Assembly: GCA_013349495.1 (NCBI GenBank)
Contig: DUZK01000001.1
Coordinates: forward strand, 1-56,521
Direction of reading: 5' to 3'
Length of the DNA: 56,521 nucleotides
From: Deltaproteobacteria bacterium
Lineage (GTDB): Bacteria > Desulfobacterota > Desulfobacteria > Desulfobacterales > SURF-15
Shown here one piece after another: positions 25,684 through 50,744 of the stretch. Within the stretch, counting starts at the first letter, position 1, and each line of letters opens with the position of its first letter. The notes beneath the pieces are model-generated. The model was not told the DNA's origin, searched no databases, and saw only the letters and a list, made by a program, of their open reading frames with translations. The position numbers were made by a program, and so were the translations under genes.

Positions 25684-25689
25684 CCCTTT

Positions 25690-27498: not shown

Positions 27499-27503
27499 GT
27501 AGC

Positions 27504-29608: not shown

Positions 29609-29609
29609 T

Positions 29610-30362: not shown

Positions 30363-30374
30363 GATACTCAGACC

Positions 30375-32447: not shown

Positions 32448-32516
32448 TATGGGTTCGGACAGGATAACAGAAGATTTAGAATTAATGAATATTCATTACA
32501 TATTTCGGTAAAAGCC

Positions 32517-34691: not shown

Positions 34692-36251
34692 TTATTTAAT
34701 CACCACCTTCTGATTTAAATATCGATAGGCATCCTCCGCCAATGTTTTTTTCCAACCCGGTTGGTATGTGCCGAATCGGGCGGGGTCTGCCGCCGACAAG
34801 TTTTCAAATATTGCACCGCAGTGCGCATCGCCCACCGTGAGTTTGGCCAATCGATCAACATCGCTTGAAGTGATTCCCCCGCCAGAAAGGATTTCGAAGA
34901 TACCGGCCGGCAGCAGGTAGGGTTTTAATTCCGGCTGGGTCATGATTCCTGCCATACCGGGAAGGTAGACATCTGTCTTTACATGTAAAACCGCCTGTGC
35001 GACGTCTTTCAAACCCCCATCGATCAAGGCATGGCAGACCGCACGCTGTATGACGGGCAGATAATCGGACTGGAAACATCCGCCGATACAGACAACACCC
35101 CGGGCCAAAGCAAACGATAGAAAACATGAAAAAACCGACGGCAGGAGATTGTTCTGTCGTAATTGCTCTATGATGATATCCGGAGAATGGGCGATTTCGA
35201 CCGTCTTCCCGCGACCACCGATTCCTTTAAGCGTGCATTGCCCTCGGCCGCCGGGTGTTAATGTCAACGGTACTTTTTTCCCCCACTCATCGATCCACCA
35301 GAAGAAAATCGTGCCTGTGGGATCGATTGTGTTAGGGCGTTTCTTTGTGTGGTTTTCCTTTACATGTGTTTTCAGGTTCTTAAGGTGCCAGCACCCTGAG
35401 ATTCCATCCAACTGAGTAATGACTTGATCCCGGACGGTCGGATTAAACAGAACATGGCTCACCAAGCTGTCCTGATTGGATAAATCCATTACCATTAAGT
35501 TTCGTACGATGCTCTCGATTTCAATATAAATCAGCTCCGGTATCGCTTGAAGATCTGCATACAGGCGTTTCCAGATGCGATTGTTTAATACGACCACCTG
35601 CTGTGAATATGACGAGAGATTCAGTATATCCTCTGATAGAAATTCTTCCCTTAAGACTTTTTTCACCGATCGATGAAACTTTTTCGATATGAGCCCGGTC
35701 TTTTCTATCTGTCCCAGAGAGGAAATGGATTGATCGATCATGGAAGAACTAAACGGAGGCGCACAACTTGAAGCCGTCCGTTTCAATCTATCGGGAAAAA
35801 TAGGCAGCCTCACCGGCATCAGGTCCAGATTTTCGGGCTTAACCTTGTAGAGCAGCAATCCTCGGGGATAGGTACGATTATTCAGGGGCACGTTTCCAAA
35901 AGAAAACGCGACCACTGCTCGATTGTGTTTTCTTCCCAACAGTGCATGGAGTGCAAAGAGAATATTCCCCTGGATGAAAATGGAGTAGGACTCGATTCCG
36001 GTATGGCTGCTTGTGAGCACAATCGGCAATCGGGTCAATTCTTCCCTGGCCTGATTCGCTATGAACTCACCGAGCAGGGGCTTCAGGAAACGATATACCG
36101 TTGACAACAAATCTTCTCTTGGCTGATACGATGAATCCGGATGCTTCAGTATTGAATTCAGGTATTCCGGAAGGGGCCTGTTTTCATGTTGCAGTAAAAC
36201 CCGGTGAACCGCGGGCAAATGTCGACAGATTAAATGAAGGTATTGCTGCAT
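34692..36251 (-). CDS. Hypothetical 519-aa soluble protein, no family recognised
   Basis: Long ORF with SD GGAGAC 5 nt upstream of the ATG. It overlaps the upstream GNAT gene by 22 nt (operon). No motif I can name. Confidence 0.6.
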   Translation of the reverse strand: MQQYLHLICRHLPAVHRVLLQHENRPLPEYLNSILKHPDSSYQPREDLLSTVYRFLKPLLGEFIANQAREELTRLPIVLTSSHTGIESYSIFIQGNILFALHALLGRKHNRAVVAFSFGNVPLNNRTYPRGLLLYKVKPENLDLMPVRLPIFPDRLKRTASSCAPPFSSSMIDQSISSLGQIEKTGLISKKFHRSVKKVLREEFLSEDILNLSSYSQQVVVLNNRIWKRLYADLQAIPELIYIEIESIVRNLMVMDLSNQDSLVSHVLFNPTVRDQVITQLDGISGCWHLKNLKTHVKENHTKKRPNTIDPTGTIFFWWIDEWGKKVPLTLTPGGRGQCTLKGIGGRGKTVEIAHSPDIIIEQLRQNNLLPSVFSCFLSFALARGVVCIGGCFQSDYLPVIQRAVCHALIDGGLKDVAQAVLHVKTDVYLPGMAGIMTQPELKPYLLPAGIFEILSGGGITSSDVDRLAKLTVGDAHCGAIFENLSAADPARFGTYQPGWKKTLAEDAYRYLNQKVVIK

Positions 36252-37051
36252 GAAACGTCTCCAGACCGTTTTGTTAAAATGACCAGTATACCGTCACCGT
36301 TTTTAAGGCCCAATGCCTGTGCCAGAAAATCTCTCCTTCCATCCTTTGCCCATGGGTCGAATGCGAATCGCGAAACAAACATATTTTTCCTAACCAATGT
36401 ATCCGTTAAATTCGCCAAAGCGCTTTCAACCTCTGCCATGTCGCCGCCCGTGAGGTTTAAATAGATTTGCCGGAATGCTTCTTTTGCAAAGGGGACTTTT
36501 TGCCGGGATGCGGTTACCAGGGCACAGTCACTACCGATCACGTTTAAATAGGGAAACACGTCATAACCGGTTACCAGTCTTTTTCGTACGATGGAAATGC
36601 AGCAATGAAGCATATCGGATTGGGTGCATGATGAAAGGAATATATTCGGGGAGGATTCGTCAAGGATTGTTTTAACGATGGCCTTTCCGATACCATGACC
36701 TTGGTATGGGGGCAAGATGGTTATGGAGATCAAGTAGACGTTGACCCATCGATTGCTCTCAATACACACCGTACCGATATCATAAAGGGCAGCTCCGATC
36801 AGTGCACTCGTCGAATTTCTAATTGTTAACACGCGTCTTTCAGCATCTCCATCGTGCTGTTTGAAGAATCCGCAACTCCATATCTTTAGTTCATCATCGG
36901 GCATTTTTGGGTAAACAACCTCCAGCAGGACCTTGATCTCTCTTTTCAAATTGTTTTGCTCACGGTTTGACCAGTTATGGATTTGATCCGTGTTATACTC
37001 CGAAACGATGAGGGGTTCGTTTAATTTGATTAAGTCTGCGTCAAGTTTCAT
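36230..37051 (-). CDS. GNAT-family N-acyltransferase with an uncharacterised C-terminal extension of about 120 aa
   Basis: GNAT motif A is ISITILPPYQGHGIGKAIVKTIL. The likely start is the ATG at 37051 (MKLDADL), 1 nt after the MFS gene's TAA (37053-37055). The longer ORF to 37114 would overlap the MFS gene. Confidence 0.7.
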   Translation of the reverse strand: MKLDADLIKLNEPLIVSEYNTDQIHNWSNREQNNLKREIKVLLEVVYPKMPDDELKIWSCGFFKQHDGDAERRVLTIRNSTSALIGAALYDIGTVCIESNRWVNVYLISITILPPYQGHGIGKAIVKTILDESSPNIFLSSCTQSDMLHCCISIVRKRLVTGYDVFPYLNVIGSDCALVTASRQKVPFAKEAFRQIYLNLTGGDMAEVESALANLTDTLVRKNMFVSRFAFDPWAKDGRRDFLAQALGLKNGDGILVILTKRSGDVSCSNTFI

Positions 37052-37052
37052 A

Positions 37053-39620
37053 TTACTTCGAAGCTTTATTTTTACGTTCACGCTCAGTCGAAAGAAAAAA
37101 CAGGAATATGGCAATTAAATAGATAACCCCCACTAAAGACATTTTTTTATAGGTCCCGAAGGCGACCAGAATCCAACTGAACAGAATCGGGCCGAGAACC
37201 TGGCCGAGTCGATACGTTGCGTTGACCACAGCGATGGATTTACCGCCGCCTAATTCCCGGGATGCTCTAAGCTTTAACACATACGATATTCGAGAGGAGA
37301 TAAAGCTACCCGAAATGCCCAGCATCAAAGTGGTTATGGCTATTGCCCATAAACCGCCGAAGAATAGAAAAGTAAGCAGCCCTGCTGCACCGATGACTTC
37401 ACCGATCACGATAAAGGCTTTTTTGTTTTCAACCGAATCAATCCGTTTGCTGATGAAGGGACCGATAAAAATCAGGCAAATACCATACAGCATAAAGACC
37501 CTACCGATATTGGATTGCGAGACCCCCATTCGGTGCAGGTAAATCGGGCTGAAATAGTTGATGAAACCAACCATGATGGTGGCTGCCGGAATAACGATAA
37601 GAAAAATCAGACTGATGATGTTCTTATTAAACAAAAAATTGATAAAATGTTTCATGCTCGGTGCCGGCGATACCGGTTTGTCACTGACTATGGCGGGCTT
37701 CTTAATGGCCTCGCGCATTGAGAGAAATGAATAGGGTATTACAAGAAAAACGATTACGGAACCGACTAAAAATACCGGATTATAACCGATTCGTTCAGCC
37801 AACATTGCACCGGCGGCACCACCGCAGATACTTCCTGTGTATACTCCGGCAAAGAAGTTGGCAATACCGCGGGCTTTTGTGTTTTCATCGGTTTGGGTGA
37901 GCACGAAACCTTGAGCGGCCATGAGGGCGAGTCCATATCCGGCTCCCACGATTCCCCTGGAAAGAATAAAATGCACTGCACTTTGTGCTAGCCATGAATC
38001 CAAAACGCCGATACCAGTGGTTAAAAGTCCCATCAAAAAAGGTTCATGCCAGCCCCGTTTATCTATCCATGCGCCGGATAAGAGGATCGATATGCCGGCG
38101 AAGAACATTTCTACGGAAATAGGTAAGCCCAAGACTAGATCTTTCGGTAAACCGAATAATGGTTCGAACAAGCTCTCCATGTGAAGGGGTACGAAAGAAA
38201 TGGATATGTAGGTACCGAATAGAAACAGAAAGGCCGCAGGGCGTATGATTCCGTAATTGTTATTTGCGGATTGCCTCGGAACAGAAGCCTTTTTTTCCAG
38301 ATATAGGTATATCATCAACAAAAGCTCCAGAGCAAAAAGGGCGGATATGACCAATACCGTTCCGGCGTCCAGTAAAAGCCCCTTTAGCTTCTGTTTGATC
38401 ACATCCCTGTATATATTTGAAGATATGGACCCGACCACATTCCCTTCTTTTCTGACCGGCGAGGTGAAATTGTATTTGCTTTCACTGCTTGAATAGGAGT
38501 CGACGATCTCTTTGGGAAGCGTCATCGGTGTTTTAATCAGATTATAAGCGTTTTGTTGATTTGCATGATACAGGGGTTTTCCTTCATTATTAAAAAGGGT
38601 AATATTTTCGACCTCGGGAAACTGAGACAGCATTTCCCCCATCACCTTCTCAATCCCAAAGAATTTATTCAGGGGCAATCGCTTTTCCAATAAGTACTCG
38701 ACGTTCTCCCGCATGAGGGTGTTCAGCGTTACGGTCATGTCTCCGTTGATCTTCAGGTAGAAGGTATTAAACGCCCTGATGCTCACAACGGAAAAACCGA
38801 TCTGGCAGGCAATGATAATCAGAAATAGTCCTACGGAGATCCCGCGTTTGGGTATTTCATTGGTCTTTTTCCATTCAACCCGATCAAACAGCCATGGAAG
38901 CGCTTTTCTAATCCTGGCACGTTCCCGAGGAAGAATAACATTTAGCATGATTATCGTTAAGAAAGATCCGCACAAAAGAACAACCCACGCAACCCTCAAA
39001 TTATGAAGCCAAGCAGCATTCACCAGTGCTTTTACATGCCTTTCATGAAATGCCAGAATAGCGGTTGCAACCCCGACCCCCTTATTATCCTGGACAACAA
39101 GAGGAACGAAATACGTGTTTTTAAATTTTATGAACCGTTCATTTTCAGGATCAGCGTCTTGGGAATCAATGGAAATAAAATCTTTGTATAATACTCCGGG
39201 CAGCATCGACCCGATTAATCCGTTGTCGGTACTGTACTTTATTTCACCATCCGGCATGGCAACGGCCACAAATATGTCCGAGTCTTCCTGTTTTTTCTCT
39301 CTGTTATCATTAGTTGAATGCTCTCCCTTGGTTTGTCGAACCATATGACCCAGCGGCTCTTCCATGAGTAAATCCATGCCGACGAATTTGTTGATTTTTT
39401 TCCCGTAGCGGACTGCTTTCTGCAGTTTTCGCCTAAACTCGGAACCGATCACCTGATAACTTGAGACCAGGGATCGAACATAAAGCTTTTCAAGCGACGA
39501 CGAAATCAACATGGTGCTGAAACCCAGCGCCAAGACAAGTACGATGGTTCCGGCGGATAAAAGCTTTATTTTCAGGAAATTTAGTTCTTTTCGTTTTTCT
39601 GCTGGAGGAGATGTCATCAT
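37053..39620 (-). CDS. Fusion protein: N-terminal membrane-anchored double extracytoplasmic (sensor-like) region plus a C-terminal MFS transporter
   Basis: aa 1-430 contain 4 hydrophobic helices bracketing two soluble segments of about 140-150 aa. aa 430-855 form a multi-helix MFS body (GIVGAGYGLALMAAQGFV, ARGIANFFAGVYTGSICGGAAG, RLGQVLGPILFSW). SD GGAG lies 8 nt upstream of the ATG. Confidence 0.75.
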   Translation of the reverse strand: MMTSPPAEKRKELNFLKIKLLSAGTIVLVLALGFSTMLISSSLEKLYVRSLVSSYQVIGSEFRRKLQKAVRYGKKINKFVGMDLLMEEPLGHMVRQTKGEHSTNDNREKKQEDSDIFVAVAMPDGEIKYSTDNGLIGSMLPGVLYKDFISIDSQDADPENERFIKFKNTYFVPLVVQDNKGVGVATAILAFHERHVKALVNAAWLHNLRVAWVVLLCGSFLTIIMLNVILPRERARIRKALPWLFDRVEWKKTNEIPKRGISVGLFLIIIACQIGFSVVSIRAFNTFYLKINGDMTVTLNTLMRENVEYLLEKRLPLNKFFGIEKVMGEMLSQFPEVENITLFNNEGKPLYHANQQNAYNLIKTPMTLPKEIVDSYSSSESKYNFTSPVRKEGNVVGSISSNIYRDVIKQKLKGLLLDAGTVLVISALFALELLLMIYLYLEKKASVPRQSANNNYGIIRPAAFLFLFGTYISISFVPLHMESLFEPLFGLPKDLVLGLPISVEMFFAGISILLSGAWIDKRGWHEPFLMGLLTTGIGVLDSWLAQSAVHFILSRGIVGAGYGLALMAAQGFVLTQTDENTKARGIANFFAGVYTGSICGGAAGAMLAERIGYNPVFLVGSVIVFLVIPYSFLSMREAIKKPAIVSDKPVSPAPSMKHFINFLFNKNIISLIFLIVIPAATIMVGFINYFSPIYLHRMGVSQSNIGRVFMLYGICLIFIGPFISKRIDSVENKKAFIVIGEVIGAAGLLTFLFFGGLWAIAITTLMLGISGSFISSRISYVLKLRASRELGGGKSIAVVNATYRLGQVLGPILFSWILVAFGTYKKMSLVGVIYLIAIFLFFLSTERERKNKASK

Positions 39621-39932
39621 ACCGGCGCTCCGTGCATTATCGATTCGATTTCCGGGTGCTCGATTCCTGTCCTTTCATATCCTGTCTTCATTTGCCCGGA
39701 CTCCCTTTCATTGCAAGGCTGATGTTTCGAAGCTTGTAGGGTGAAAATGATATGAAACCATACGGTTATGATGGATTTCTTATCTGAAAAACCTTCCATT
39801 GGCAAGTTAGATCAGAGTGCTTTTTGTCCCCATCATTCACTTTCAACTTGAATATTCAATAATCAAAGGATATTAAGGAATCTATCCTGCAAAAAACCGA
39901 GCATAATCCTTTAGATTGCAATAAGGGTATTT

Positions 39933-40910
39933 ATGAGAAGCTTGAAAATCGGTACCGTCTTGATTCTGGTTCTTATCTCACTGGGGCTCACGGATGCTCG
40001 GGGCAAATCACTCAAGAAAGCCTCTTTCATGACCCACTGGCTGCCCCATGCCCAGTTTGCCGGGTTTTATGTGGCTTATGAAAAAGGACTTTATAAAAAG
40101 CACGGTATCGATCTAACAATCATCCCCGGGAGCCCCAATCGGTCGTCATATGAATATCTAAGGGACGGCAAAGCCGATTTTGTTACGCTTTGGCTTTCCA
40201 GCGGCATCAAGATGCGGGCTGAAGGATTGAAGGTCGTCAACATTTCACAGATCGTGCAGCGATCCGGTTTCATGCTTATTGCGAAAAAGACATCCGGCAT
40301 CAACACGATACTCGATATCCGTAATAAGAAGGTGGGATTGTGGGCAGCGCCTTTCGATCTCCGGCCGATGGCACTGTTCTTGAAATACGACATCAAAGTC
40401 AAGGTGGTACCTCAATCGGCCAGTTTGAACCTTTTTCTAAGGGGAGGGGTTCATATGGCCTCGGCTATGTACTACAACGAATACCACACCCTGCTCAACA
40501 GCGGTTTGGACAGCCATGAATTGACCCCATTTTTTTTTCGGGATTACGGTCTGGATTTTCCCGAAGACGGGATTTATACATTGGAAGACAGGCTGACATC
40601 CGACCCCGACCTATGCCGTGCATTCGTCAATGCGTCTCAGGAGGGCTGGCTGTATGCCTTTGCCAATCCCGATGATGCCGTTGATATTGTTATGAAGCTG
40701 TTGAGAGATGCCCACATCCCTGCCAACCGGGTTCACCAGAAATGGATGCTGGAGCAAATGCGGGACTTGACATTAAGAGATACCGGATCGGGTCCCCTGT
40801 GGAAGCTCTCAAAGGAAGGCTTTATTCGAACATGCGGTGAAATGAAGCGAATCGGTTTTGTTGAGAGGGTTCCCGATTATAATGAACTATATAAAGATTT
40901 GAGCCGATGA
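39933..40910 (+). CDS. NMT1/THI5-like (NitT/TauT-type) periplasmic solute-binding protein
   Basis: Signal peptide, then FMTHWLPHAQFAGFYVAYEKGLYKKHGIDLTIIPGSP...GKADFVTLWLSSGI. The stop overlaps the start of the next gene (ATGA at 40907-40910). Confidence 0.75.
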   Translation: MRSLKIGTVLILVLISLGLTDARGKSLKKASFMTHWLPHAQFAGFYVAYEKGLYKKHGIDLTIIPGSPNRSSYEYLRDGKADFVTLWLSSGIKMRAEGLKVVNISQIVQRSGFMLIAKKTSGINTILDIRNKKVGLWAAPFDLRPMALFLKYDIKVKVVPQSASLNLFLRGGVHMASAMYYNEYHTLLNSGLDSHELTPFFFRDYGLDFPEDGIYTLEDRLTSDPDLCRAFVNASQEGWLYAFANPDDAVDIVMKLLRDAHIPANRVHQKWMLEQMRDLTLRDTGSGPLWKLSKEGFIRTCGEMKRIGFVERVPDYNELYKDLSR

Positions 40911-42847
40911 AAACCAGAGGCATTGCATTCAGGCTTTCTTTCTTCATTCTCTCCGTCGTAGCGTTGATATTCGTTTCGGTCTTTTCATACAATTATTACT
41001 TCTCCCGGCGCATTCTAATTAAAAACGCAGAGCAAATCGCCCGCCATTTCACTCTTGAAACGGTAAACCGGCTGGAGACCGTTCTGAGTTCCGTTGTCAA
41101 AGTTCCCCTGGGTCTTTCCAGCTTTTTGGAATACGCACAATACTACAGCGAAACTCTCAATTCCATATGCCGTTCCACCATGGCCAACAATCCGGAAATA
41201 TCCGGAATTACCATCGCATTCAAACCGTTCGGATATGCTCAGGAAAAGCTCTACCATACATTCTATTATTCTAAAAAAGATGGCGAAATTGAATTACTCG
41301 AAGAGGGATCCCGAGTCTCCCACTATTTCACTTTAGACTGGTATCAGATCTCGAAAGAACTGAATCGGGCGGTCTGGAGCGAACCCTATTATGATGCGGG
41401 CGGCGGCAATATGCTGATGGCCACCTATTCGGTTCCATTTTACGGAACCCAGTCGGGCGCAAGTGAATTCATGGGCGTCGTCGCTGCAGATGTTTCCCTT
41501 ACCTGGCTTCAGGATATCGTATCCGCCGTTAAAATCCTTGAGACCGGTTATGCGTTTTTGATCACGAACACCGGAACCATCGTTACCCATTTTGACCGGG
41601 ATGTGATCATGAACGAGACCATTTTCAGTGTGGCCGAGGCTTTCGGCGACACCCACCTCAGAGAAGTCGGAAAAATGATGATTCGGGGCGAGTCGGGCTT
41701 TGAATACTTCAAAGGGCCGTACGCGGGAAAGGATTGGTGGATTTCTTTTGCGCCGTTGAAATCAAGCGGCTGGTCGCTGTGCACGGTATTCCCGGACGAC
41801 GAACTCATGGCCGATGTCATCCGCCTGAACCGAACGGTATTGTTTATCGGTATATCCGGATTGTTCGGCCTTTTTGTCATCATCGTTCTGATCGCCCGAT
41901 CCATCACACGACCATTGAGTGCCCTCTCGAAGGTCACTGAAACGATTGCAACAGGCGAATTGGATGCGCAACTCCCGGCAATAAAGACCAGAGATGAAGT
42001 GGGAAGACTTTCCGAGTCCATTGAACACATGAAGACTTCACTTAAACAGTACATAGTAGATTTGACGCGTGAATGCGCAATGAGGGAACGAATCGAAAGC
42101 GAGCTTCAGATTGCTCGGCAAATTCAAATGGGAATATTGAAAAAGACCTTCCCTGCTTTTCCGGACCGTTCGGCATTTGATATTTTTGCAATGATTGAGC
42201 CGGCCAGGGAAGTCGGTGGCGATCTCTATGATTTCTTTTTCGTGGATGATCATAATCTCTGTATGGTTATCGGCGATGTAGCCGGCAAAGGAATACCGGC
42301 CGCCCTTATGATGGCGGTCACCCGGACCTTGATAAAAGCAAGAGCGTCTACGGTTTTGTCACCCGATGAAGTATTGAGTATCGTCAACAATGAACTCGCA
42401 GAAGATAACGATTCTGCAATGTTTGTGACCTTGTTCATGGGAGTCCTGGACACCCATACCGGGGAGATGACCTATTGCAATGCCGGCCACAATTATCCGT
42501 TTCTTGTCAGCCCCAATGGCGAGGTTACAGAAATCGAAACCAGAAACGGCATGCCGCTGGGATTGGTGGAAGATTTTCCCTATGAAACAGGTAAGATAAT
42601 GCTGCCCCCTGGAAATATTTTCTATCTATATACAGACGGTGTCAATGAAGCCATGAACGCCCATGATGAGCAATTTTCGGAAGATCGGATCCAGAGCGAT
42701 CTTGCAAGATTAAAAAACAACTCAATCCGGCAGATTACCGACGGTGTAATGGACAGCGTGAAAGCGTTTTCCCAAGGCATGCCTCAGTCCGATGATATCA
42801 CCATGTTGATCTTAAAATATTATGGAAATATGGAGAAGACTCATTGA
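40907..42847 (+). CDS. Membrane-bound Cache-HAMP-PP2C (SpoIIE/RsbU-type) serine phosphatase
   Basis: TM helix, an extracytoplasmic Cache-like region (..WYQISKELNRAVWSEPYYDAGGGNMLMATYSVPFY..GYAFLITNTGTIVTH) and a second TM. HAMP: RSITRPLSALSKVTETIATGELDAQLP..DEVGRLSESIEHM. PP2C blocks: EVGGDLYDFF, GDVAGKGIPAALMM, YTDGVNEA, SDDITMLIL. Confidence 0.85.
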   Translation: MKTRGIAFRLSFFILSVVALIFVSVFSYNYYFSRRILIKNAEQIARHFTLETVNRLETVLSSVVKVPLGLSSFLEYAQYYSETLNSICRSTMANNPEISGITIAFKPFGYAQEKLYHTFYYSKKDGEIELLEEGSRVSHYFTLDWYQISKELNRAVWSEPYYDAGGGNMLMATYSVPFYGTQSGASEFMGVVAADVSLTWLQDIVSAVKILETGYAFLITNTGTIVTHFDRDVIMNETIFSVAEAFGDTHLREVGKMMIRGESGFEYFKGPYAGKDWWISFAPLKSSGWSLCTVFPDDELMADVIRLNRTVLFIGISGLFGLFVIIVLIARSITRPLSALSKVTETIATGELDAQLPAIKTRDEVGRLSESIEHMKTSLKQYIVDLTRECAMRERIESELQIARQIQMGILKKTFPAFPDRSAFDIFAMIEPAREVGGDLYDFFFVDDHNLCMVIGDVAGKGIPAALMMAVTRTLIKARASTVLSPDEVLSIVNNELAEDNDSAMFVTLFMGVLDTHTGEMTYCNAGHNYPFLVSPNGEVTEIETRNGMPLGLVEDFPYETGKIMLPPGNIFYLYTDGVNEAMNAHDEQFSEDRIQSDLARLKNNSIRQITDGVMDSVKAFSQGMPQSDDITMLILKYYGNMEKTH

Positions 42848-45800
42848 GCACGTAGACGCTTTACGAGAACCCTGATAATCCCCCTGGCGACATCAACATA
42901 ATCGGACATCAATTCATAGAATACATCCTGATCCAATCTAAGCAGCTTGGATGGCTCCAGGGCGGTTACCGAGGCCATGCGGGGTTCAGCATCAAGCAGT
43001 GCCATCTCCCCCACGATTTCCTTTTCCCCGAGTTCAGCAATGAACCTGTCTCCATCATGGACCTTCACTCTGCCCGAGGCAACGATATACATGCAATTGC
43101 CGATTTGTCCCTTTTGAATGATCCTTTGTTCGGATACAAACTCAACCTCTTCCAGGTTGGCTGCGATATCGATCAAGATTTCCTCAGACAGCGGTGTAAA
43201 TATTTCAACGGTTTTCAAAAGCATGACCTTTTCTATGGTCAAAAGCATTTCCGTATCTCCTATGGTTTTAGCGAATGTATTTTTTATTGCCCCGTCAATC
43301 GCTGACTCCCTTTCTTTTAGCGGTCTTTGAATGATTTGAGCTATTCTTTGAGGATGCAATCTTGATAGCGCCCAGGCGGCGGTTTCCCGTACCACCAAGT
43401 GTTCGTTTTCCAGGTTCGACTCCAACTCTTGAAGCCATTCTGTTTCAGACCATTCAGTTACCGCATAAATAGCGCAGGCCTTGGTCCATGGGGAGATATC
43501 GGCTTCAGTCAGCTTCAAAAGCTCCTTCAACCGCTGTGTGCGATCCAGTTTTACTTGGGGAAATTTATCCAATAAATTGTTTGATAGGCGACCTGAATCC
43601 ATACTCTGAAACAGAGGAAAAAGAATGGATTTTGTTTCCGGAGCAATTGTTACATCTATGAGTTCATAAGCGTAACTTTGTTTATCTTTTGATCCTTTGT
43701 TTATGGCATCATAAGCTTTTAGCATCGTTTCCGGGGTGTGTATAAATGAGAGCAACAGGAAGATGTTATATCGATTCCGCTTAATTTCACTATCCAGCGC
43801 GTTTTTTAACGCAGCCACTGCCTCATGTTCTCCCAAATCTCCTCTGACGGCGACCTTCCAAACAGCATGAGCCGCTTCTCTATATATTTGATCCTGGACT
43901 GTACGGATATCTGTATTTGGGGCCTGATATCGACGATTTCTTAATTCGTCCAGGATATGAGCTCGGATCGTTTGATTCGGGCAATTCACTTCATCCCACA
44001 AGATATTTGATCCCTGTTTGCCGGCGATCTTTCCATAAATCCGAAGGATCTGTATACGGGTCTGAATTGGCGTATTTGGAAACTTAAAGGTTTGTTTTAG
44101 ATAAGGGAGTGCCGGCTTCCCGATAGCAGCAAGGGCGGATCGAGCATTGCAACGCAAAGGTCGGCTGGTTAGAATTTCCATTAAAGATGTGCAAAAATGA
44201 GAATCGCCGATTTTTCCGGCCGCATCTATAGCGACACGTCTCACCGATAGGTCCTCATCCCTCAAAAGTCGCAGCAGGAGTTCATCGAAGTCATTCATCT
44301 TGACTTCACCCAACACCAATGCGGCGATTTTACGGTCTTCAACCGATTCGGAATTTGTCATCTCGATAAGGGTTTTCTCAGCCATTGAAGCCCTACCGGT
44401 CTCCGGATTTTGAAGGAGACCGAGCAGGGCGTCTCTGCGAAGAAGAGGGCTCGGGTCCAGAAGATATTCAGAGACCATCTCAACCGCTTGGGTATCGTCT
44501 AAAGTGCAAAGTGTGCGGAGGGCTCTTCCCCGTACATCAATCGACACGTCTGATTTTGCGATGTTCGCCACAGGTTTGTAAATTTTAGAGCTGGGGAACC
44601 GTTCAATCCTTGCCAATACATCTTTCCGGACCAAAGGCGACGGATGTTGCAATAATTTATGATACGCCTTTTTCATCTGTTCAACACTATTTTTTTCCAA
44701 AAGATCGAGTGAAAAAATCACTTCTCCCGGATTTGACGAATCCAGCGATCGTCTCAAAACGGCTATACTGGATGCATCGTTCAGTGACAGGTCCGTACTT
44801 TCGCCGATCAAGACTCGTTTGGCGATGGCTTGACTCAATGCGACGGGATATTCGCGAGATACCCAAATGGATCCGATGATCCATGCGAGCATTAATATGG
44901 ATAGCAAATAAGAAAAATGAACCAGTGTGAACGTTGGGAATAGTCCTGTAAAAAGTAATATTCCACCGGCCACTCCGCTGACCAGCGGCTGATATATACC
45001 CTCCAATCGGGTTTGAAATGAGATCCGTTCGTCCTTCTGCAATGGTTGATAAAGAACTCTAAAAGTGGGGTCAAATATGGATAATCGTCCCGTACGATCC
45101 ATTAGCTTGGTGGCCACGATAAGATAAAAGAGCAGATTTCCGATACCGACTAATGTTCCGACTATGGCAGTTGACAGAATCCCGATGGTCAGGAATGCGG
45201 GAAGAATGACCAATCCGGCTTTTAATCCGTATCGGGTCAGAAGACGTCCCGAGACAATGGATTTTAATAGGAGTTCAACTAGCTTAACAGATCCATAGAA
45301 GAAACCGAAAAATGCCGCCAGTCGGTCTGCTTCCTGATAATGGGTGTATGCTTGGTCCAGAAAAAAATAGTGAAGAAAATAGAGACCCGAAGTCGACAGG
45401 ATCATGACATTGAATATCAGTCGTAGATACCTGCTTTTGAGCGGCCGGGTCACTTGAACGTCAATCGGCCTGTCTGCCACGGTTTTTTCCTGTGGCGAGG
45501 CAATTTGAGATAAAAATTGACGATTGATATGAATGAGCAGCAATAGACTGGATAGAAGTCCACCAGCCGAGATAAGCAGTAGATTAATGGTTCCGATATG
45601 GTTCACGATGAGGGGAATGGTAAAAAAGGCCAACAGGCTAGTGACCACTTCACCTGCCCCGATCAATCCGAAAAGACGTTTAGCCTGGCGCAGATGTAAA
45701 ATTCGTCCCGCCAACCCCCAAAATTCAATATTAATTAATGAAACAAACGGAGTGATTAGTATGTAAAGTCCAAGGGATAGCCAGCTTGCATGACTCCAAA

Positions 45801-46131
45801 ACAGACCGATCCAAAACGCAAGGACTGCTACCAAGAGAAAAGAAAGATTTGCGATCAATGTGCCCGAAAAGGAAAGTATTCGGTCCGTTTTGGAATAAAT
45901 CATTCCGATAACGGTACCGGCAACGGCTGCCATCATATATCCGTGGGGTATGAGATCGGTTCCGAATTCTGCAAGAAAAAGGGCGTTTGCCGGTGTGAAG
46001 AAAAACGCCATGCTGATACCCACAAAGCAGGAATGGATTAACAGCAGCCGTGTGGCATGTCTCTCTTCCGGGTGAATGTCAAGGAGTGATAACAAAAGAT
46101 TGAAAGGCTGGTGTAGTAAATCTCTCAGCAA
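42841..46131 (-). CDS. 1096-aa multidomain membrane protein: polytopic permease-like domain plus HEAT repeats plus a C-terminal cyclic-nucleotide-binding domain
   Basis: aa 1-430 hold about 11-12 hydrophobic helices. aa 450-930 hold HEAT/PBS-lyase-type repeats (LQHPSPLVRKDVLARIE, LLDPSPLLRRDALLGLL, LRDEDLSVRRVAIDAAGKIGD, NEHLVVRETAAWALSRL). The last 125 aa form a CAP-type cNMP domain (RIIQKGQIGNCMYIVASGRVKVH...GEKEIVGEMALLDAEPRMASVTA). TTG start with GAGGG upstream. Confidence 0.8.
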   Translation of the reverse strand: MLRDLLHQPFNLLLSLLDIHPEERHATRLLLIHSCFVGISMAFFFTPANALFLAEFGTDLIPHGYMMAAVAGTVIGMIYSKTDRILSFSGTLIANLSFLLVAVLAFWIGLFWSHASWLSLGLYILITPFVSLINIEFWGLAGRILHLRQAKRLFGLIGAGEVVTSLLAFFTIPLIVNHIGTINLLLISAGGLLSSLLLLIHINRQFLSQIASPQEKTVADRPIDVQVTRPLKSRYLRLIFNVMILSTSGLYFLHYFFLDQAYTHYQEADRLAAFFGFFYGSVKLVELLLKSIVSGRLLTRYGLKAGLVILPAFLTIGILSTAIVGTLVGIGNLLFYLIVATKLMDRTGRLSIFDPTFRVLYQPLQKDERISFQTRLEGIYQPLVSGVAGGILLFTGLFPTFTLVHFSYLLSILMLAWIIGSIWVSREYPVALSQAIAKRVLIGESTDLSLNDASSIAVLRRSLDSSNPGEVIFSLDLLEKNSVEQMKKAYHKLLQHPSPLVRKDVLARIERFPSSKIYKPVANIAKSDVSIDVRGRALRTLCTLDDTQAVEMVSEYLLDPSPLLRRDALLGLLQNPETGRASMAEKTLIEMTNSESVEDRKIAALVLGEVKMNDFDELLLRLLRDEDLSVRRVAIDAAGKIGDSHFCTSLMEILTSRPLRCNARSALAAIGKPALPYLKQTFKFPNTPIQTRIQILRIYGKIAGKQGSNILWDEVNCPNQTIRAHILDELRNRRYQAPNTDIRTVQDQIYREAAHAVWKVAVRGDLGEHEAVAALKNALDSEIKRNRYNIFLLLSFIHTPETMLKAYDAINKGSKDKQSYAYELIDVTIAPETKSILFPLFQSMDSGRLSNNLLDKFPQVKLDRTQRLKELLKLTEADISPWTKACAIYAVTEWSETEWLQELESNLENEHLVVRETAAWALSRLHPQRIAQIIQRPLKERESAIDGAIKNTFAKTIGDTEMLLTIEKVMLLKTVEIFTPLSEEILIDIAANLEEVEFVSEQRIIQKGQIGNCMYIVASGRVKVHDGDRFIAELGEKEIVGEMALLDAEPRMASVTALEPSKLLRLDQDVFYELMSDYVDVARGIIRVLVKRLRAQ

Positions 46132-46185
46132 ACTTGATACCCTCTAAAATGAAACACTCCCGGGTAACAGTGGCGCATTGATCGC

Positions 46186-46602
46186 TTATGGCCTTTTAAC
46201 CACAAGTTGCAGAATGTTTCTGCCGGATTCTCTTCGGTAATCGACGCTATCCATCAGTTCTTTGATCAGAAGAATTCCTAATCCCCCAATTTGGCGATCA
46301 CTGATATCCGCTTCCACATCCGGTGTTTCAATGGATTCGAAATCGAATGGTTCGCCTTCATCTATGATCTCGATGACGAATTGACGGTCATGTTCTATGC
46401 GGCATGCCACGATTGCTTCGCCGGTTTCTTCCGGGTATGCATAGTTGAAAATATTAACCAGCGCTTCTTCAACCGCAATTTTTATTTCATTAAGTCTTTC
46501 CTCACTGAAACCAACGGTTTCGGCCGCTTCGGCAATAAATTGGATGAATTCGGATAGATTCTTTTGTGAGGCTTGCCGTATGATATGTGCCGGGAGTTCC
46601 AT
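46186..46602 (-). CDS. RsbW/SpoIIAB-type anti-sigma-factor-like serine kinase (HATPase_c)
   Basis: N-box EEALVNIFNYAY, IEIIDEGEPFD, GGLGILLIKELMDSVDY. The gene starts 4 nt after the STAS gene stop. Confidence 0.85.
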   Translation of the reverse strand: MELPAHIIRQASQKNLSEFIQFIAEAAETVGFSEERLNEIKIAVEEALVNIFNYAYPEETGEAIVACRIEHDRQFVIEIIDEGEPFDFESIETPDVEADISDRQIGGLGILLIKELMDSVDYRRESGRNILQLVVKRP

Positions 46603-46606
46603 GAGT

Positions 46607-46939
46607 CTAAAGTTGCGCTAAAGCGGTCTCTTCCGTGTCGAATATTTTAAATGCAGAATAGAATCCGGAAATTTTGAAAACTTTCTCTACTGAACCCTTA
46701 AGCCCAACAAACAGCAGCTCTCCGTGCAAAGCCTTAAGATTTTTTGCTGCCGCCAGCACGACCCGAAGACCCGCGCTGCTGATGTAATCGAGCCCTTCAA
46801 GGTTAACGACAATTTTTTTTTCATTTTGAGCGATTTGATTCGTAAAGCATTCCTGAAGACTGGGAGCCGTGTCGGCATCCACTTTGCCTTTAATCCGAAT
46901 CACAACCGCATTTCCCTTTTTCTCAGTATCAATATCCAT
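46607..46939 (-). CDS. STAS-domain anti-anti-sigma factor (RsbV/SpoIIAA type)
   Basis: VVIRIKGKVDADTAPSLQE...VVNLEGLDYISSAGLRVVLAAAK...LFVGLKGSVEKVFKISGF. The conserved phosphorylatable Ser context is DYISSAGL. SD GGAGGG lies upstream. Confidence 0.85.
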   Translation of the reverse strand: MDIDTEKKGNAVVIRIKGKVDADTAPSLQECFTNQIAQNEKKIVVNLEGLDYISSAGLRVVLAAAKNLKALHGELLFVGLKGSVEKVFKISGFYSAFKIFDTEETALAQL

Positions 46940-47171
46940 AATCCCTCCAGCGGTTATATCTAAACGGCATCAATGTGATGCAAACTTGCCTTTCTTTCCG
47001 CTTTATTATAAAGAACTTCAAGGGTTAGTGAACTCGATCTATCTCCATTAATCTTAAGCACTTTGGACCGGTTCAGTATTGTTCTCCACCATTTTACTTT
47101 ATATTTTGATTAAATTGCAATAGAGCAAGAAGGTTTTGTATTTTTTGATCCACAACACGCGGGGAGTAAGA

Positions 47172-49475
47172 ATGCAATCATCCACCATCCATCCTGCCGA
47201 GGACAAGAAACCATCTGTTGATTTTTCAGCCATAAAAGATAAGCTCAACACGATTCAAAGGACTTTTAAAGCGTCTGCTTCATTCGAAGAAGCCATGATC
47301 GAATCGGAAAAGGCCGTGCTTTCGCTCTTTGATGCTGAATCTCTGAGAGTTTACCGGGCTCAAAAACAGAAGCTGGTCACATGGGTCAAACGGCGTAATG
47401 ATGCCAAAGAGATCCAATTTCCCCTTTCCAGCTCTTCCTTGGCCGGGTTTTCGGCATTGAGCCATAAAGTGCTTCGAGTGAATGACGTCAAAAATTATAG
47501 GGTGTTGGCCGCTTATCATCCCGAGTTAAAGTTTAACATAAAATACGATGTTTTTTCCGGTGTGCGAACCCGCTCTGTCATTTCCGCTCCCCTAGATCAT
47601 GAAGACACACTGGTGGGAGTACTTCAAATTATTAACTGCAGAGACAAGGACGGGTTTGGGGAACAGTGCGAACTCATTGCAAAATCAGTTGCTCAAATCG
47701 TCGCCAAAAAACTGTCGGAAGAATTGAAAACGACAACCGGTCCCTTTGAAGATCTGATTCTCCGAGGCCTCCTGACCAGAGATCAGCTGGCGGAATTACA
47801 GGATAGAGCAAAAGCCGAAAGAACTTTTGTGAGCTATCTCATGAGAACCGAACTGGGTATCCTTTCAATCGATATCGGGGCTTCACTCGAAAAGCATTAT
47901 CAGGTTCCTTTTCACAAGTATGATTCGGTCATCCGTATACCGGAGGATCTGGTTAAGGGGATTAGCAAGTACTACCTGAAGGAAAATCTCTGGGTGCCCA
48001 TTGATGGCAGTAAGGACCGAACGGTCGTTGTCATGGACAATCCGAAAGATCTCAGGAAGATTCAGGATATTCAGAATGTCATTCGAGCCCATAGCTATGA
48101 GTTCATGGTGGGGTTGCCTGAAGATATTCTTAACTATTTAGGTATGGGACCTCCGCTTCCCGATACGGACACGTTAGCAGATGCAATGGCTCAGCGGTTG
48201 AGCGAGTTGGAAATCCGAACCAAAGATGAGGATGCAGCACCTGCAGATCAGTTAAAGGAAACATACTCTATCGATGTGGATAGCGATTCCACAGCTGTTT
48301 TGTATATGAATAATCTCATTCTTCAGGCCCAGCGGATGAATGCCTCGGATATTCATATCGAACCCTATAAACCCGGACGTCCGGCCGTGGTTCGGGTGCG
48401 GGTAGACGGTATTTGCCGAAGGATTGCTGAAATTCCGTCCAAAAGTGTTCAAGCGGTCATTTCCAGAATAAAAATCATGTCGGATCTCGATATTGCAGAT
48501 CGGCGACTGCCCCAGGACGGCAAGGCAAGGGTAAACCTGAAAGGGAGACCGCTGGAATTGCGCATTGCAACTGTACCCACGGTTTATGGCGAAAGTGTGG
48601 TGATCAGATTATTGGCCATGGGCGGCGGTTTGCCTTTGGGCAAGCTTAACCTCTCTGCCAGAAACGAGAGCGAAATTAAACGCCTTTGTGCCCGACCTCA
48701 TGGAATCTTTCTGGTGGTCGGCCCTACCGGTTCCGGCAAAACCACCACATTGCACGGTATACTGGGCCATATCAACAAACCCGAGCGTAAAATATGGACC
48801 GCGGAAGATCCTGTGGAAATTACCCAAGCCGGATTACAGCAGGTACAGGTGAGCCGCAAGATCGGATTGGATTTTGCTAGAGTCATGAGAGCATTTCTTC
48901 GTGCGGACCCGGATGTGATACTCATTGGAGAGATGCGGGATTACGAAACGGCGAATATCGGAATCGAATCGTCTCTGACCGGACATCTTGTGTTTTCAAC
49001 ATTGCATACCAATTCGGCGCCTGAAACCATTACCCGACTCATCGAATTGGGGATCGATCCTTTGGATTTCTCTGATGCCCTTTTGGGTATTCTGGCCCAG
49101 CGATTGGTGCGGACCTTATGCCCGGATTGCAAGGAACCGTATCACGCATCAAAAAAGGAGTCTCAAAGAATCTTAGAAGCCTACGGTGCCGAACACGCGG
49201 ATGAGTTGACCGTGGATCCTAATCAGATCATGCTTCATACCGCCAAAGGGTGCGAAAAGTGTGGAAATACCGGTTACCGGGGACGGACCGGGATTCATGA
49301 ACTATTGGTGAACTCCGATGCCATCAAACAGATAATCGCCAGGAAAGGGCTTGTAGAAGAGATTCGAAAAGAGGCCGTTCGTGAGGGAATGCGAACGCTG
49401 ATGCAAGACGGGCTCAGCAAAATTGTTAAGGGTGATACGGATATGGTCCAGCTGCATCACGTGGCAGCGGAATGA
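47172..49475 (+). CDS. GspE/PilB-family secretion ATPase with an N-terminal GAF domain
   Basis: GAF-like: LAGFSALSHKVLRVNDV...RSVISAPLDHEDTLVGVLQIINCRD. T2SSE N-domain. ASDIHIEPY, Walker A GPTGSGKTT (about 48719-48745), Walker B DPDVILIGEMRD, His box TGHLVFSTLHTN, and the tetra-Cys CPDC...CEKC. The ATG at 47172 has GGGGAG upstream; the ORF track starts at the TTG at 47136. Confidence 0.9.
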   Translation: MQSSTIHPAEDKKPSVDFSAIKDKLNTIQRTFKASASFEEAMIESEKAVLSLFDAESLRVYRAQKQKLVTWVKRRNDAKEIQFPLSSSSLAGFSALSHKVLRVNDVKNYRVLAAYHPELKFNIKYDVFSGVRTRSVISAPLDHEDTLVGVLQIINCRDKDGFGEQCELIAKSVAQIVAKKLSEELKTTTGPFEDLILRGLLTRDQLAELQDRAKAERTFVSYLMRTELGILSIDIGASLEKHYQVPFHKYDSVIRIPEDLVKGISKYYLKENLWVPIDGSKDRTVVVMDNPKDLRKIQDIQNVIRAHSYEFMVGLPEDILNYLGMGPPLPDTDTLADAMAQRLSELEIRTKDEDAAPADQLKETYSIDVDSDSTAVLYMNNLILQAQRMNASDIHIEPYKPGRPAVVRVRVDGICRRIAEIPSKSVQAVISRIKIMSDLDIADRRLPQDGKARVNLKGRPLELRIATVPTVYGESVVIRLLAMGGGLPLGKLNLSARNESEIKRLCARPHGIFLVVGPTGSGKTTTLHGILGHINKPERKIWTAEDPVEITQAGLQQVQVSRKIGLDFARVMRAFLRADPDVILIGEMRDYETANIGIESSLTGHLVFSTLHTNSAPETITRLIELGIDPLDFSDALLGILAQRLVRTLCPDCKEPYHASKKESQRILEAYGAEHADELTVDPNQIMLHTAKGCEKCGNTGYRGRTGIHELLVNSDAIKQIIARKGLVEEIRKEAVREGMRTLMQDGLSKIVKGDTDMVQLHHVAAE

Positions 49476-49543
49476 TTTGAAAGTATAAGCGTTCCTGTTT
49501 AAAGCTGATTTCTATTGACCATTTTAAAGAATGAGGAAATAAA

Positions 49544-50599
49544 ATGTCTGACAAGCAACTTTATTTAGACACCCTGATTCATTTGCAAGCCTTTGAAACC
49601 TACTGGGCGTACTACTCAGTGAGCGATGGAAAACTTTATTTGGAAGCCAGTCGCAAATCCTCTAAAACGCTTTCAGACTCCCTCAAAGCGCTCGCAGAAA
49701 GGGATAGCGGTATTTTGGATTCGGAGGTCTTATCCGGAGAAGAAGATTTCGATGCTCAAGATCTCATCAACAGGCTTGAGTCGTGGGGGAACGGCGGCGC
49801 AACTTCTGCTCCTTTCGACAACATCACTCTCAGCATTCGAAACCTTTCGTCCTATTTTATGGCCCTGAAAAAGTACATTATTAAAGAGACGGGCTCAACC
49901 GCCAAACCGTTTTTACAGATCAACCGTGAAGAACTCCTTTTCAGAGAGGGTGTTATTCGATGGCAGGCCCATATGCCCACCATGCTGCTTGGGGGAGAGC
50001 AGAGTCCGGAAGAGTTGCTGGAAAAGGCCTCGGCAGGGCCTTCCATCGTGGTGGTCGGTAATATCAAAAGGCTTCACGATCTCATGACCTATGCAATCGA
50101 TGGCAATTCCTTTTCTTCTTTTATGGTCCGTTTTATTGAAAGAACCCGAATGTTCATTGACGAGTATTTGGGGGTTTTCGATAAATTCACCGAAGACGGG
50201 TTTATCGCTTATTTCTGCAAAGCCATTTGTGAAACTTCCAATCTGGATTTCGTGGACTGTTTTCTAAATTTTGTAAAAAACGAATTGGAGTTTGCAGAAA
50301 CATTGTTTCAGGAGTGGGGCAGCACCATTCGAAAGCTGCCGTCTCACCCCATCGGGTTGTCACTCGGGGCGGACATGGGATCGGTCCTGCTTCAGGATCT
50401 GGCCAGTCAATTGCTGGCGGTGGGAGAGCCCTTGGTATGGTCCAGGCGGCTTTCAGAAATCGGGGATGCCGGAGAGTTGCTGATAAACAATTTAATTAAC
50501 AGCCAAATCGGAGACCGATCCGGAATACGAATTGAAAAACGGGTGTGCAGCACTTTCGCAGGAGAAGAATTTATTGCCCGTAAAGTCATATTCAGTTGA
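49544..50599 (+). CDS. Hypothetical protein; the C-terminal half resembles a degenerate class III nucleotide-cyclase homology domain
   Basis: Good SD (GAGGA 8 nt upstream). By-eye threading: IVVVGNIKRL ~ vlFaDivgFT; DKFTEDGFIAYF ~ dKfiGDavmavF; IGLSLGADMGSVL ~ iGihtGpvvaGvi; GEPLVWSRRLSE ~ GdtVNlAsRlEs. The first metal Asp and the transition-state Asn are substituted. Confidence 0.45.
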   Translation: MSDKQLYLDTLIHLQAFETYWAYYSVSDGKLYLEASRKSSKTLSDSLKALAERDSGILDSEVLSGEEDFDAQDLINRLESWGNGGATSAPFDNITLSIRNLSSYFMALKKYIIKETGSTAKPFLQINREELLFREGVIRWQAHMPTMLLGGEQSPEELLEKASAGPSIVVVGNIKRLHDLMTYAIDGNSFSSFMVRFIERTRMFIDEYLGVFDKFTEDGFIAYFCKAICETSNLDFVDCFLNFVKNELEFAETLFQEWGSTIRKLPSHPIGLSLGADMGSVLLQDLASQLLAVGEPLVWSRRLSEIGDAGELLINNLINSQIGDRSGIRIEKRVCSTFAGEEFIARKVIFS

Positions 50600-50744
50600 G
50601 AAGACCCGACTATGGTCTTGCAATCATAAACAGTAAAAACTCAACGCCATATCGATAACCATGGATATCTATATTATTTGGATTCCGGGGGAAGGGGAGA
50701 AGTGGGCTTACGAAGGCTCTTTAGGCGAAAAATCGCATATGATT

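Follow-up and report, generated by a model that had tools for sequence, protein, structure and literature searches.

A partner-switching module without a linked sigma factor gene: an exchangeable sensor unit and candidate outputs

What does a partner-switching module of the RsbU/V/W type control when no sigma factor gene accompanies it? The question is raised by a 56.5-kb stretch of contig DUZK01000001.1 (hereafter the window), in which five open reading frames (ORFs) between 39933 and 46939 encode a solute-binding protein of the NMT1 family, a membrane-bound PP2C phosphatase, a large fusion of an NTT-type transporter domain, HEAT repeats and a domain for binding cyclic nucleotides (cNBD), an RsbW-type kinase and a STAS protein (Table 1). 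An earlier note on this sequence had described these genes as a complete partner switch wrapped around the NTT-HEAT-cNBD gene, and had proposed the NTT-HEAT-cNBD protein as the target to which the switch is wired. All five ORFs were located precisely where that note had placed them, and each domain call was confirmed by Pfam. Comparison with about 170 related loci leads us to another view of the target, on which our confidence is evenly poised between acceptance and doubt: the locus would be a modular, sigma-unlinked switch with an extracytoplasmic input, for which an adjacent GAF-MshEN-T2SSE ATPase and 351-aa protein are the likeliest local output or co-regulated machine, and the NTT-HEAT-cNBD gene would be a lineage-specific neighbor.

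The three components of the switch look catalytically intact. The STAS protein scores 91.5 bits against the NCBIfam model for anti-sigma factor antagonists (TIGR00377, cut-off 53) and is most similar to SpoIIAA (1auz, 6e-14), whose phospho-acceptor Ser58 pairs with Ser55, the predicted phospho-acceptor here. The kinase, which starts 4 nt past the STAS stop, is most similar to RsbW (6m36, 2e-11). In an alignment with 25 relatives its N-box (E45/E46/N50), G1 (D81/G83) and G2 (G106-G109) residues are invariant; its NCBIfam RsbW and SpoIIAB scores lie far below the equivalog cut-offs. The phosphatase covers positions 1-191 of the 192 in the SpoIIE profile, and the motifs GGDLYD, GDVAGKG, YTDG and SDD can be read in its sequence; matches in the PDB are to the Cache sensor 3li8 (4.5e-19) and to the phosphatase domains of RssB and Rv1364c. 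Two hydrophobic transmembrane (TM) helices, at residues 8-26 and 311-329, bracket its Cache domain, which is therefore predicted to be periplasmic. The locus holds a STAS protein with the conserved Ser, a HATPase_c_2 protein with its ATP boxes and a PP2C with its metal-binding Asp motifs, so that the triad is apparently active and the complete RsbU/V/W-type switch described in the earlier note is borne out. Its co-location is not due to chance, because the STAS-kinase-NMT1-Cache/PP2C set recurs at other loci.

No sigma-70-family gene was found in the window, either by phmmer searches of all ORFs with RpoD regions 2-4 or among the called ORFs by Pfam, and none lies beside any of about 90 related kinase loci. 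The lack of a sigma factor gene, which had been remarked on from the window, thus extends to its relatives, and the classical form of the module, with the sigma factor encoded alongside, does not apply here. On the kinase side the comparison covers the best 80 of at least 584 kinase-clade loci, namely metagenome loci L089-L168, whose kinases are 34-50% identical to that of the window. As judged from these neighborhoods, the clade is a large and modular STAS-kinase group of Desulfobacterota-like anaerobes, never seen beside a sigma factor.

The NMT1-like protein has a signal-like N-terminus (hydrophobic segment at residues 4-22) and matches PDB entry 4nmy at 1e-16 and ThiY (3ix1) at 1e-8. Its stop codon and the start of the phosphatase gene overlap as ATGA, as the earlier note had stated, and the functional coupling that was proposed on this basis gains from the comparison: an NMT1 gene lies beside a Cache-HAMP-PP2C gene in 17 of the 80 kinase-family loci, in three different gene orders. 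Contiguous STAS-kinase-NMT1-PP2C is the most frequent order, found in 12 of those 17 loci and in L086 (examples are L086, L089, L092, L105 and L116). In the L086 operon all four proteins are 51-53% identical to those of the window, with the PP2C at 53%. The convergent split of the window is also seen in L094 and L098, where the genes that intervene are unrelated: L094 has a TolC/HlyD/MacB efflux pump at this place, L098 a xanthine/uracil permease. Because the pairing recurs while the intervening genes differ, NMT1 and Cache-PP2C are best regarded as a conserved sensor unit, and the content between this unit and STAS-kinase varies.

In the window the PP2C and NTT-HEAT-cNBD genes are convergent, with a 7-nt overlap at their ends. 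A blastn comparison with L174 gave two aligned blocks, 42841-50624 (92.8%) and 36600-39808 (83%). The intervening 3,032 nt, containing NMT1, PP2C and their upstream region, are replaced in L174 by about 28 nt. L081 has the PP2C, though it is 94% identical to L174 over the NTT-HEAT-cNBD gene. The supposition that the NTT-HEAT-cNBD gene was inserted into a canonical four-gene operon was revised, since L174 shows NMT1-PP2C as a recent indel. In the window lineage it is the NMT1-PP2C unit itself that appears to be the mobile part, and the impression of a module wrapped around the NTT-HEAT-cNBD gene is owed to this recent 3-kb indel, missing in L174, and not to an old design. More generally, the input phosphatases of this STAS-kinase clade appear to be exchangeable.

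The pairing of the two sensor genes and the known behavior of these families suggest how the switch would work. The periplasmic NMT1 protein and the dCache domain of the PP2C would sense a ligand, and the signal, passed through the HAMP domain, would set the activity of the PP2C on phospho-Ser55 of the STAS protein. The RsbW-like kinase would re-phosphorylate Ser55 with ATP. Unphosphorylated STAS would capture the kinase, and so would free the other partner of the kinase. The identity of that partner is the crux of the question.

The candidate best placed in the comparative data is encoded divergently from the STAS gene. The T2SSE ATPase is not an equivalog of either secretion or pilus ATPases by NCBIfam (GspE 469 against a cut-off of 630, PilB 459 against 676), and neither the scanned ORFs of the window nor the gene tables of L172-L175 showed a family of GspF/PilC type. 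Its orthologues, at 52-92% identity, adjoin STAS-kinase in L174, L084, L173 and L175. The 351-aa protein encoded directly after it belongs to a rare family of only 13 clusters among 5.8 billion sequences, for which two sources give the name adenylate cyclase (class III). It has no Pfam or NCBIfam match, and the family profile matches the cyclase CyaB (3r5g) weakly, over 140 residues with E=0.0085. Where the two metal-binding Asp would be expected from the alignment, the 13 members differ (N, D, S, G). An AlphaFold2 model from the 13-sequence alignment reached a pLDDT of 55.5, too poor for fold comparison. The 351-aa protein is probably a degenerate cyclase-homology protein.

Every readable locus of the 351-aa family has a T2SSE gene directly upstream, and all but one have STAS-kinase within a few kb. 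L174 (351-aa homologue at 95%) keeps the window order without NMT1-PP2C. L084 (65%) carries STAS-kinase and a PP2C with a cyclic nucleoside monophosphate (cNMP)-binding domain, then the 351-aa gene and T2SSE. The order in L173 (51%) is T2SSE, 351-aa, cNMP-MshEN-T2SSE, PAS-cyclase, STAS, kinase, and in L175 (52%) kinase, STAS and dCache-HAMP-PP2C are divergent from T2SSE and the 351-aa gene. The P0247 contig (54%), whose arrangement is known by a Pfam gene table only, has T2SSE and the 351-aa gene on one strand, next PAS-cyclase, cNMP-T2SSE, kinase and STAS on the opposite strand (so that STAS and kinase come first in the direction of transcription), and then dCache-PP2C. No switch was seen in L172 (55%), where the contig ends 5 kb downstream. 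The linkage of STAS-kinase with T2SSE and the 351-aa gene is thus found in five lineages (window/L174, L084, L173, P0247 and L175) with 351-aa proteins at 51-95% and differing gene orders; the NTT-HEAT-cNBD gene is absent from all T2SSE/351-aa loci outside the window lineage.

Several points weigh against this assignment. The link rests on six loci of one rare family, the T2SSE/351-aa genes occur in none of the 80 wider kinase loci, and the association could be retained synteny within one clade instead of function. The slot that a target classically occupies, immediately after the kinase, is held in the window lineage by the NTT-HEAT-cNBD gene, which shares the strand of the kinase and follows a short spacer that lacks a terminator-like site. 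In the wider kinase family the commonest neighbor by number of loci sampled is a GNAT-like protein, termed X below, and the window has no X orthologue. We therefore name the T2SSE ATPase/351-aa pair as the other partner of the kinase only tentatively, at clearly less than an even chance; the share of probability left over by this and the alternatives below goes to a partner encoded beyond the window.

Table 1. Features of the window around the partner-switching genes, in map order.
Feature	Coordinates	Strand	Basis or remark
GNAT-like protein, 294 aa, downstream of MFS gene	36230..37114	-	Pfam Acetyltransf_1 1e-5; 72% in L174
MFS transporter, 855 aa, with N-terminal extension of ~460 aa; conserved neighbor	37053..39620	-	Pfam MFS_1 4e-31
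3.0-kb indel unit with NMT1 and PP2C	39809..42840	+	in window and L081, absent from L174
NMT1/THI5-like periplasmic solute-binding protein, 325 aa	39933..40910	+	Pfam NMT1 1.2e-36
Membrane sensor phosphatase, 646 aa: TM1, dCache, TM2, HAMP, PP2C (SpoIIE family)	40907..42847	+	Pfam MCP-like_PDC/dCache_1, HAMP, SpoIIE 2.1e-52
NTT(TLC)-HEAT-cNBD fusion, 1096 aa, TTG start	42841..46131	-	Pfam TLC 7e-9, HEAT_2 8e-27, cNMP_binding 9e-21
Spacer between kinase and NTT-HEAT-cNBD genes, 54 nt	46132..46185	-	no promoter-like or terminator-like match
RsbW-type serine kinase (HATPase_c_2), 138 aa	46186..46602	-	Pfam 5.5e-31
Single-domain STAS protein, RsbV/SpoIIAA-like antagonist, 110 aa	46607..46939	-	Pfam STAS 4.3e-24
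Sigma-70-like -35/-10 match (TTCACT-16-TATAAT) 5' of STAS	47005..47032	-	consensus match only; count for the region equals shuffle expectation
GAF-MshEN-T2SSE ATPase (GspE/PilB superfamily), 779 aa, divergent from STAS	47136..49475	+	Pfam T2SSE 3.9e-117, MshEN, GAF
351-aa protein of a rare family, directly after T2SSE gene	49544..50599	+	C-terminal half resembles degenerate class III cyclase domain

A set of four genes encoding GAF-MshEN-T2SSE, the 351-aa protein, cNMP-MshEN-T2SSE and a PAS class III cyclase is shared by L172 (7601-16168), L173 (7640-15121) and P0247. In L172 the set includes an extra GAF-HD protein, and no GspF/PilC-type platform gene was found in the flanks of the set. The set gives the impression of two orphan ATPases of secretion type under the control of a second messenger. 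The divergent intergenic region between the STAS and T2SSE genes of the window measures 196 nt and holds the sigma-70-like match listed in Table 1. Promoter consensus counts over 39500-47300 and the L081 spacer were at the level of shuffled sequence, and the promoter and terminator scans were uninformative. A large MFS transporter is a further recurring companion of this switch: on the far side of the sensor genes, the 855-aa MFS protein has relatives at 81% in L174 and 36% in L175, and a large MFS protein is also encoded on the P0247 contig.

The main alternative is that the switch is of the classical anti-sigma kind and acts on a sigma factor encoded by another part of the genome. In its favor, RsbW is the nearest match of the kinase, and SpoIIAA/RsbV that of the STAS protein. 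The RsbU-RsbV-RsbW (sigma-B) and SpoIIE-SpoIIAA-SpoIIAB (sigma-F) systems of Bacillus subtilis have the same three families, the Ser, the ATP boxes and the PP2C motifs, and share with the window the order antagonist, kinase, third gene; unlike them, the window has no sigma factor gene after the kinase, and its PP2C is membrane-bound, carries a periplasmic dCache domain and is coupled to a binding protein. The RsbU/RsbV1/RsbV2/RsbW system of Chlamydia trachomatis comes nearer, being likewise Gram-negative, with a membrane RsbU that carries a periplasmic domain and HAMP, and with no linked sigma factor gene. The reported target of the chlamydial system is sigma-66, which is unlinked, and its sensor binds tricarboxylic acid-cycle intermediates (PMC13463777). 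The periplasmic sensor-HAMP-PP2C of the window parallels this RsbU with its unlinked target, so that RsbW/sigma-66 provides a precedent, and our view covers 56.5 kb of the genome. Unlike the chlamydial system, however, the window has an extra NMT1-type protein coupled to the phosphatase and the T2SSE ATPase and 351-aa protein as conserved neighbors. No group-3 sigma factor gene was found near the approximately 90 related kinase loci, the RsbW and SpoIIAB scores fall far under the equivalog cut-offs, and the conserved non-sigma neighbors argue for a different output. On balance we consider an unlinked sigma factor unlikely, although it deserves serious weight.

Outputs other than sigma factors have precedent. 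They are known for a handful of model systems, mostly in Proteobacteria, among them SiaABCD and HsbR-HsbA-HsbD of Pseudomonas aeruginosa, SypE-SypA of Vibrio fischeri and BtrU/V/W of Bordetella. SiaA is the best NCBIfam match of the phosphatase studied here (5.5e-23), at 81 bits far below the cut-off of 700. The window is like these sigma-independent switches in lacking a sigma factor gene and in having GAF, MshEN, cNBD and cyclase-like parts nearby. It is unlike SiaABCD in that its STAS protein is canonical, not SiaC-type, and its phosphatase does not qualify as a SiaA equivalog; no GGDEF domain was found in any window ORF scanned. To our knowledge, neither a T2SSE ATPase/351-aa pair nor an NTT-HEAT-cNBD protein has been reported as the output of any switch. 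A sigma-independent switch has been described for SypA/SypE (PMC10120452). In function, the window is paralleled most closely by the Rsb system of Chlamydia and by these sigma-independent switches from Pseudomonas, Vibrio and Bordetella.

A second alternative is the one favored by the earlier note: the kinase, or else the STAS protein, would bind the NTT-HEAT-cNBD protein at its cytoplasmic HEAT/cNBD part, so that the switch would gate, or be gated by, a cNMP-regulated transporter-like scaffold. The TLC domain of the NTT-HEAT-cNBD protein scores 35.4 bits (Pfam cut-off 21); about 11-12 TM segments lie in residues 29-424, HEAT repeats span approximately 450-930, and in the C-terminal cNBD both Glu and Arg of the phosphate-binding cassette are retained (GEMAL...RMAS), so that the NTT/TLC domain, the HEAT repeats and a cNBD with its cassette are all present. 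In a profile of 33 homologues the N-terminal part matches the plastid ATP/ADP carrier NTT1 (9j3j, 9e-22) and the C-terminal part the cNMP-binding domains of PKG, PKA and CRP; the protein probably responds to cAMP or cGMP. Chlamydia trachomatis also has a member of this family. NTT-HEAT-cNBD fusions are monophyletic, widespread in bacteria and functionally uncharacterized (Major, Embley and Williams 2017, PMC5381601). The window protein has the identical three-part architecture; its slot after STAS-kinase is lineage-specific.

The local arrangement is suggestive. STAS, kinase and NTT-HEAT-cNBD genes are co-oriented, and the order is kept in L081 and L174 even where NMT1-PP2C is missing, with kinase-to-NTT spacers that range through indels from the 54 nt of the window to 87 nt in L174 and 163 nt in L081. 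The TTG start and an AGAGGG Shine-Dalgarno sequence (AGAGGG/GGAGGG) are conserved in both. Because of this conservation and a spacer without promoter-like or terminator-like sites, the NTT-HEAT-cNBD gene is probably co-transcribed after the kinase. A public call of this gene, P0001 (1056 aa), begins 40 codons 3' of the TTG (window 46011-46131); the longer form is favored, because the TTG and ribosome-binding site are conserved and P0002 (1098 aa) aligns over its full length. In L174 (3262-6556) the gene is called as overlapping ORFs, a TLC part of 425 aa and a HEAT-cNBD part of 685 aa, a split that reflects either a frameshift, in which case the gene may be a pseudogene or have undergone natural fission, or an error in the sequence.

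Contacts between the kinase clade and cNMP-binding proteins are found beyond the window lineage as well. Such proteins are encoded at or after the kinase as cNMP-PP2C in L084 and L114, as cNMP-T2SSE on the P0247 contig, and in ORFs of L126 and L160, in addition to the NTT-HEAT-cNBD gene; in 781 kb of kinase loci, three of the four cNMP-binding ORFs are directly beside the kinase. In sister clusters (P0247, L084, L114 and L126) another cNMP-binding gene thus follows the kinase. Homologues of the NTT-HEAT-cNBD gene stand immediately before a PP2C gene in L005 (Anaerolineales) and in L077 (Chitinophagaceae), where the kinase is next, and two Bacteroidota loci share a block with a STAS gene. That block was found in two metagenome-assembled genomes, one of Bacteroidales and one of Chitinophagaceae (L070 1330-16196 and L077 2740-17193), and contains STAS, an nSTAND1-WD40 NTPase, a TonB-dependent receptor, a 279-aa protein, NTT-HEAT-cNBD and a Reg_prop/Y_Y_Y sensor. 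This sensor terminates, in L077, in GAF-SpoIIE together with an RsbW-like kinase, and, in L070, in HisKA-HATPase_c.

The wider distribution speaks against a general connection. Homologues of the NTT-HEAT-cNBD protein occur in many phyla (148 clusters at E<=1e-10; at least 552 confirmed genome loci). The best 80 of these loci (L001-L080, with flanks of up to 10 kb per side) were screened for STAS, kinase and PP2C by phmmer and iterated hidden Markov models (HMMs). STAS and kinase lie within 10 kb of the NTT-HEAT-cNBD gene in two of the 80, L070 and L077, and the iterated HMM search added only PP2C in L005 and L031; other first-round PP2C matches were merely HAMP/Cache similarity to histidine kinases and a cyclase. 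By our estimate, as opposed to a computed control, two in 80 is about chance, as two or three would be expected in phyla with many STAS-kinase pairs per genome. Conversely, the gene is present in none of the 80 kinase-family loci. A Pfam scan of its immediate neighbors (65 upstream and 66 downstream, 131 in all) did not place STAS or HATPase_c_2 among the 25 commonest families, which were tabulated; the commonest were HAMP, HisKA, GAF and Guanylate_cyc, the last with three upstream and three downstream. Beyond the window lineage, the nearest homologues (40-42% identity) have no switch beside them; their neighbors are a BON-domain gene, PriA or a GAF-histidine kinase.

The synteny of STAS, kinase and NTT-HEAT-cNBD, which the earlier note had put forward as a check and which we followed from both sides, is thus kept only in the window, L081 (NTT-HEAT-cNBD protein at 89%) and L174 (STAS 93%, kinase 93%, NTT-HEAT-cNBD 89%). 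These three contigs are one lineage and hence one event. The earlier note had also said that its proposal would fall if a cognate sigma factor regulated by the kinase were found elsewhere and the NTT-HEAT-cNBD gene proved to have its own promoter and an independent distribution: the independent distribution was found, the gene apparently having joined the switch only in a narrow lineage; the spacer holds no promoter-like site. Most cNMP domains near the switches are, moreover, on the phosphatase, and cNMP would therefore be an input to such switches, not an output. The NTT-HEAT-cNBD gene does not appear to be a general target or output of the switch, and outside a single narrow lineage the data lend no support to the wiring of a switch to a cNMP-gated transporter scaffold. 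A lineage-specific link, kept alive by the cNMP and PP2C neighbors, may exist; binding of the kinase or the STAS protein to the HEAT/cNBD part seems improbable. If the switch has been rewired in this lineage, the kinase or unphosphorylated STAS would dock on the HEAT solenoid, periplasmic ligand and cAMP or cGMP would jointly control the NTT-like protein, and more broadly cNMP-binding proteins (NTT-HEAT, T2SSE, PP2C) would be interchangeable clients of the clade, a scheme that we regard as decidedly doubtful. In the literature we found nothing relevant linking partner switching to NTT, HEAT or cNMP-binding proteins, or RsbW to GNAT proteins.

Among the immediate neighbors of NTT-HEAT-cNBD genes, 6 of 131 carry class III cyclase domains and about nine are sensor histidine kinases. 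The cyclase-rich neighborhood fits a cNMP receptor that often adjoins its cyclase, and hints that the NTT-HEAT-cNBD family is a component of cNMP signaling rather than a plain transporter.

The remaining candidate output is suggested by the GNAT-like family X (about 340 aa), most short members of which have no Pfam match. An MFS gene and X lie directly upstream of STAS in five canonical operons (L086, L089, L092, L094 and L116), and X is also near STAS-kinase in L173. Three further loci encode longer forms of X that begin with an RsbW-like HATPase_c_2 domain (L111 15186-16706, minus strand; L138 3792-5267; L157 7077-8558), and these fusions sit in STAS-X-PP2C-kinase clusters. The associations suggest that RsbW-like domains work with X, and an acetyltransferase-type output for this class of switch. 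That the MFS and GNAT-like genes of the window play this role, as their position beside the cassette, their conservation in L174 and the Rosetta-stone hint of the fusions might suggest, is very unlikely, for the 294-aa protein is not an X orthologue (hhalign probability 6.6%, with only acetyl-CoA motif A matched) and the 855-aa protein is just 25% identical (E=0.007) to the canonical MFS. A 519-aa window protein was likewise rejected as an X orthologue, with an hhalign probability of 0.2%.

The remainder of the window has a different character. The 519-aa protein (34692-36251) has no family match, and with an ABC_sub_bind-type binding protein gene (33497-34663) it adjoins the GNAT and MFS genes; an ABC_sub_bind gene is also beside the large MFS gene on the P0247 contig. 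Two giant ORFs (4654 and 3867 aa; 111-25683) carry KS, DH, KR and ACP domains and RhiE-like KS linkers. No AT domain was found in their scanned parts, and they therefore look like a trans-AT polyketide synthase (PKS). Downstream, at 25690-33311, come genes for a carbamoyltransferase, a glycosyltransferase, a metallophosphoesterase, a methyltransferase and a phosphopantetheinyl transferase, and the whole looks like a biosynthetic gene cluster. The G+C content falls from about 0.57 to about 0.46 at approximately 18000-26000, in the middle of the second giant PKS ORF (14080-25683), and is 0.42-0.53 thereafter; the drop may mark the edge of a recombination or module-swap event, or else a join made in assembly. 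At the other end, synteny with L174 stops at 50624, just past the 351-aa gene, and L174 continues with cupin and M20 peptidase genes. The segment 50625-56521 of the window is of mobile-element type, with a DUF2335 ORF, a CHC2 zinc-finger ORF, an IstB-like ATPase (52525-53307), a 498-aa helix-turn-helix protein (possibly the IS21 protein IstA) and a KorB-like ORF.

The triad is of the known RsbU/V/W kind, and nothing sets the NTT-HEAT-cNBD protein apart from the family already described. Three things appear to be new, relative to the literature we found: the Cache-PP2C unit coupled to a binding protein, the recurrent linkage of the switch to an orphan T2SSE ATPase together with a cyclase-like protein, and the fusions of RsbW with GNAT. 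The comparative data define a large STAS-kinase clade of uncultured anaerobes that is never sigma-linked and has an exchangeable sensor unit. Its two recurrent non-sigma partners are an orphan GAF-MshEN-T2SSE ATPase with a rare cyclase-like protein, and a GNAT-like protein sometimes fused to RsbW, and the clade is repeatedly in contact with cyclic-nucleotide-binding proteins. The loci also provide one of the first genomic contexts for the widespread NTT-HEAT-cNBD family, and they yield concrete, testable candidates for the outputs of sigma-unlinked switches.

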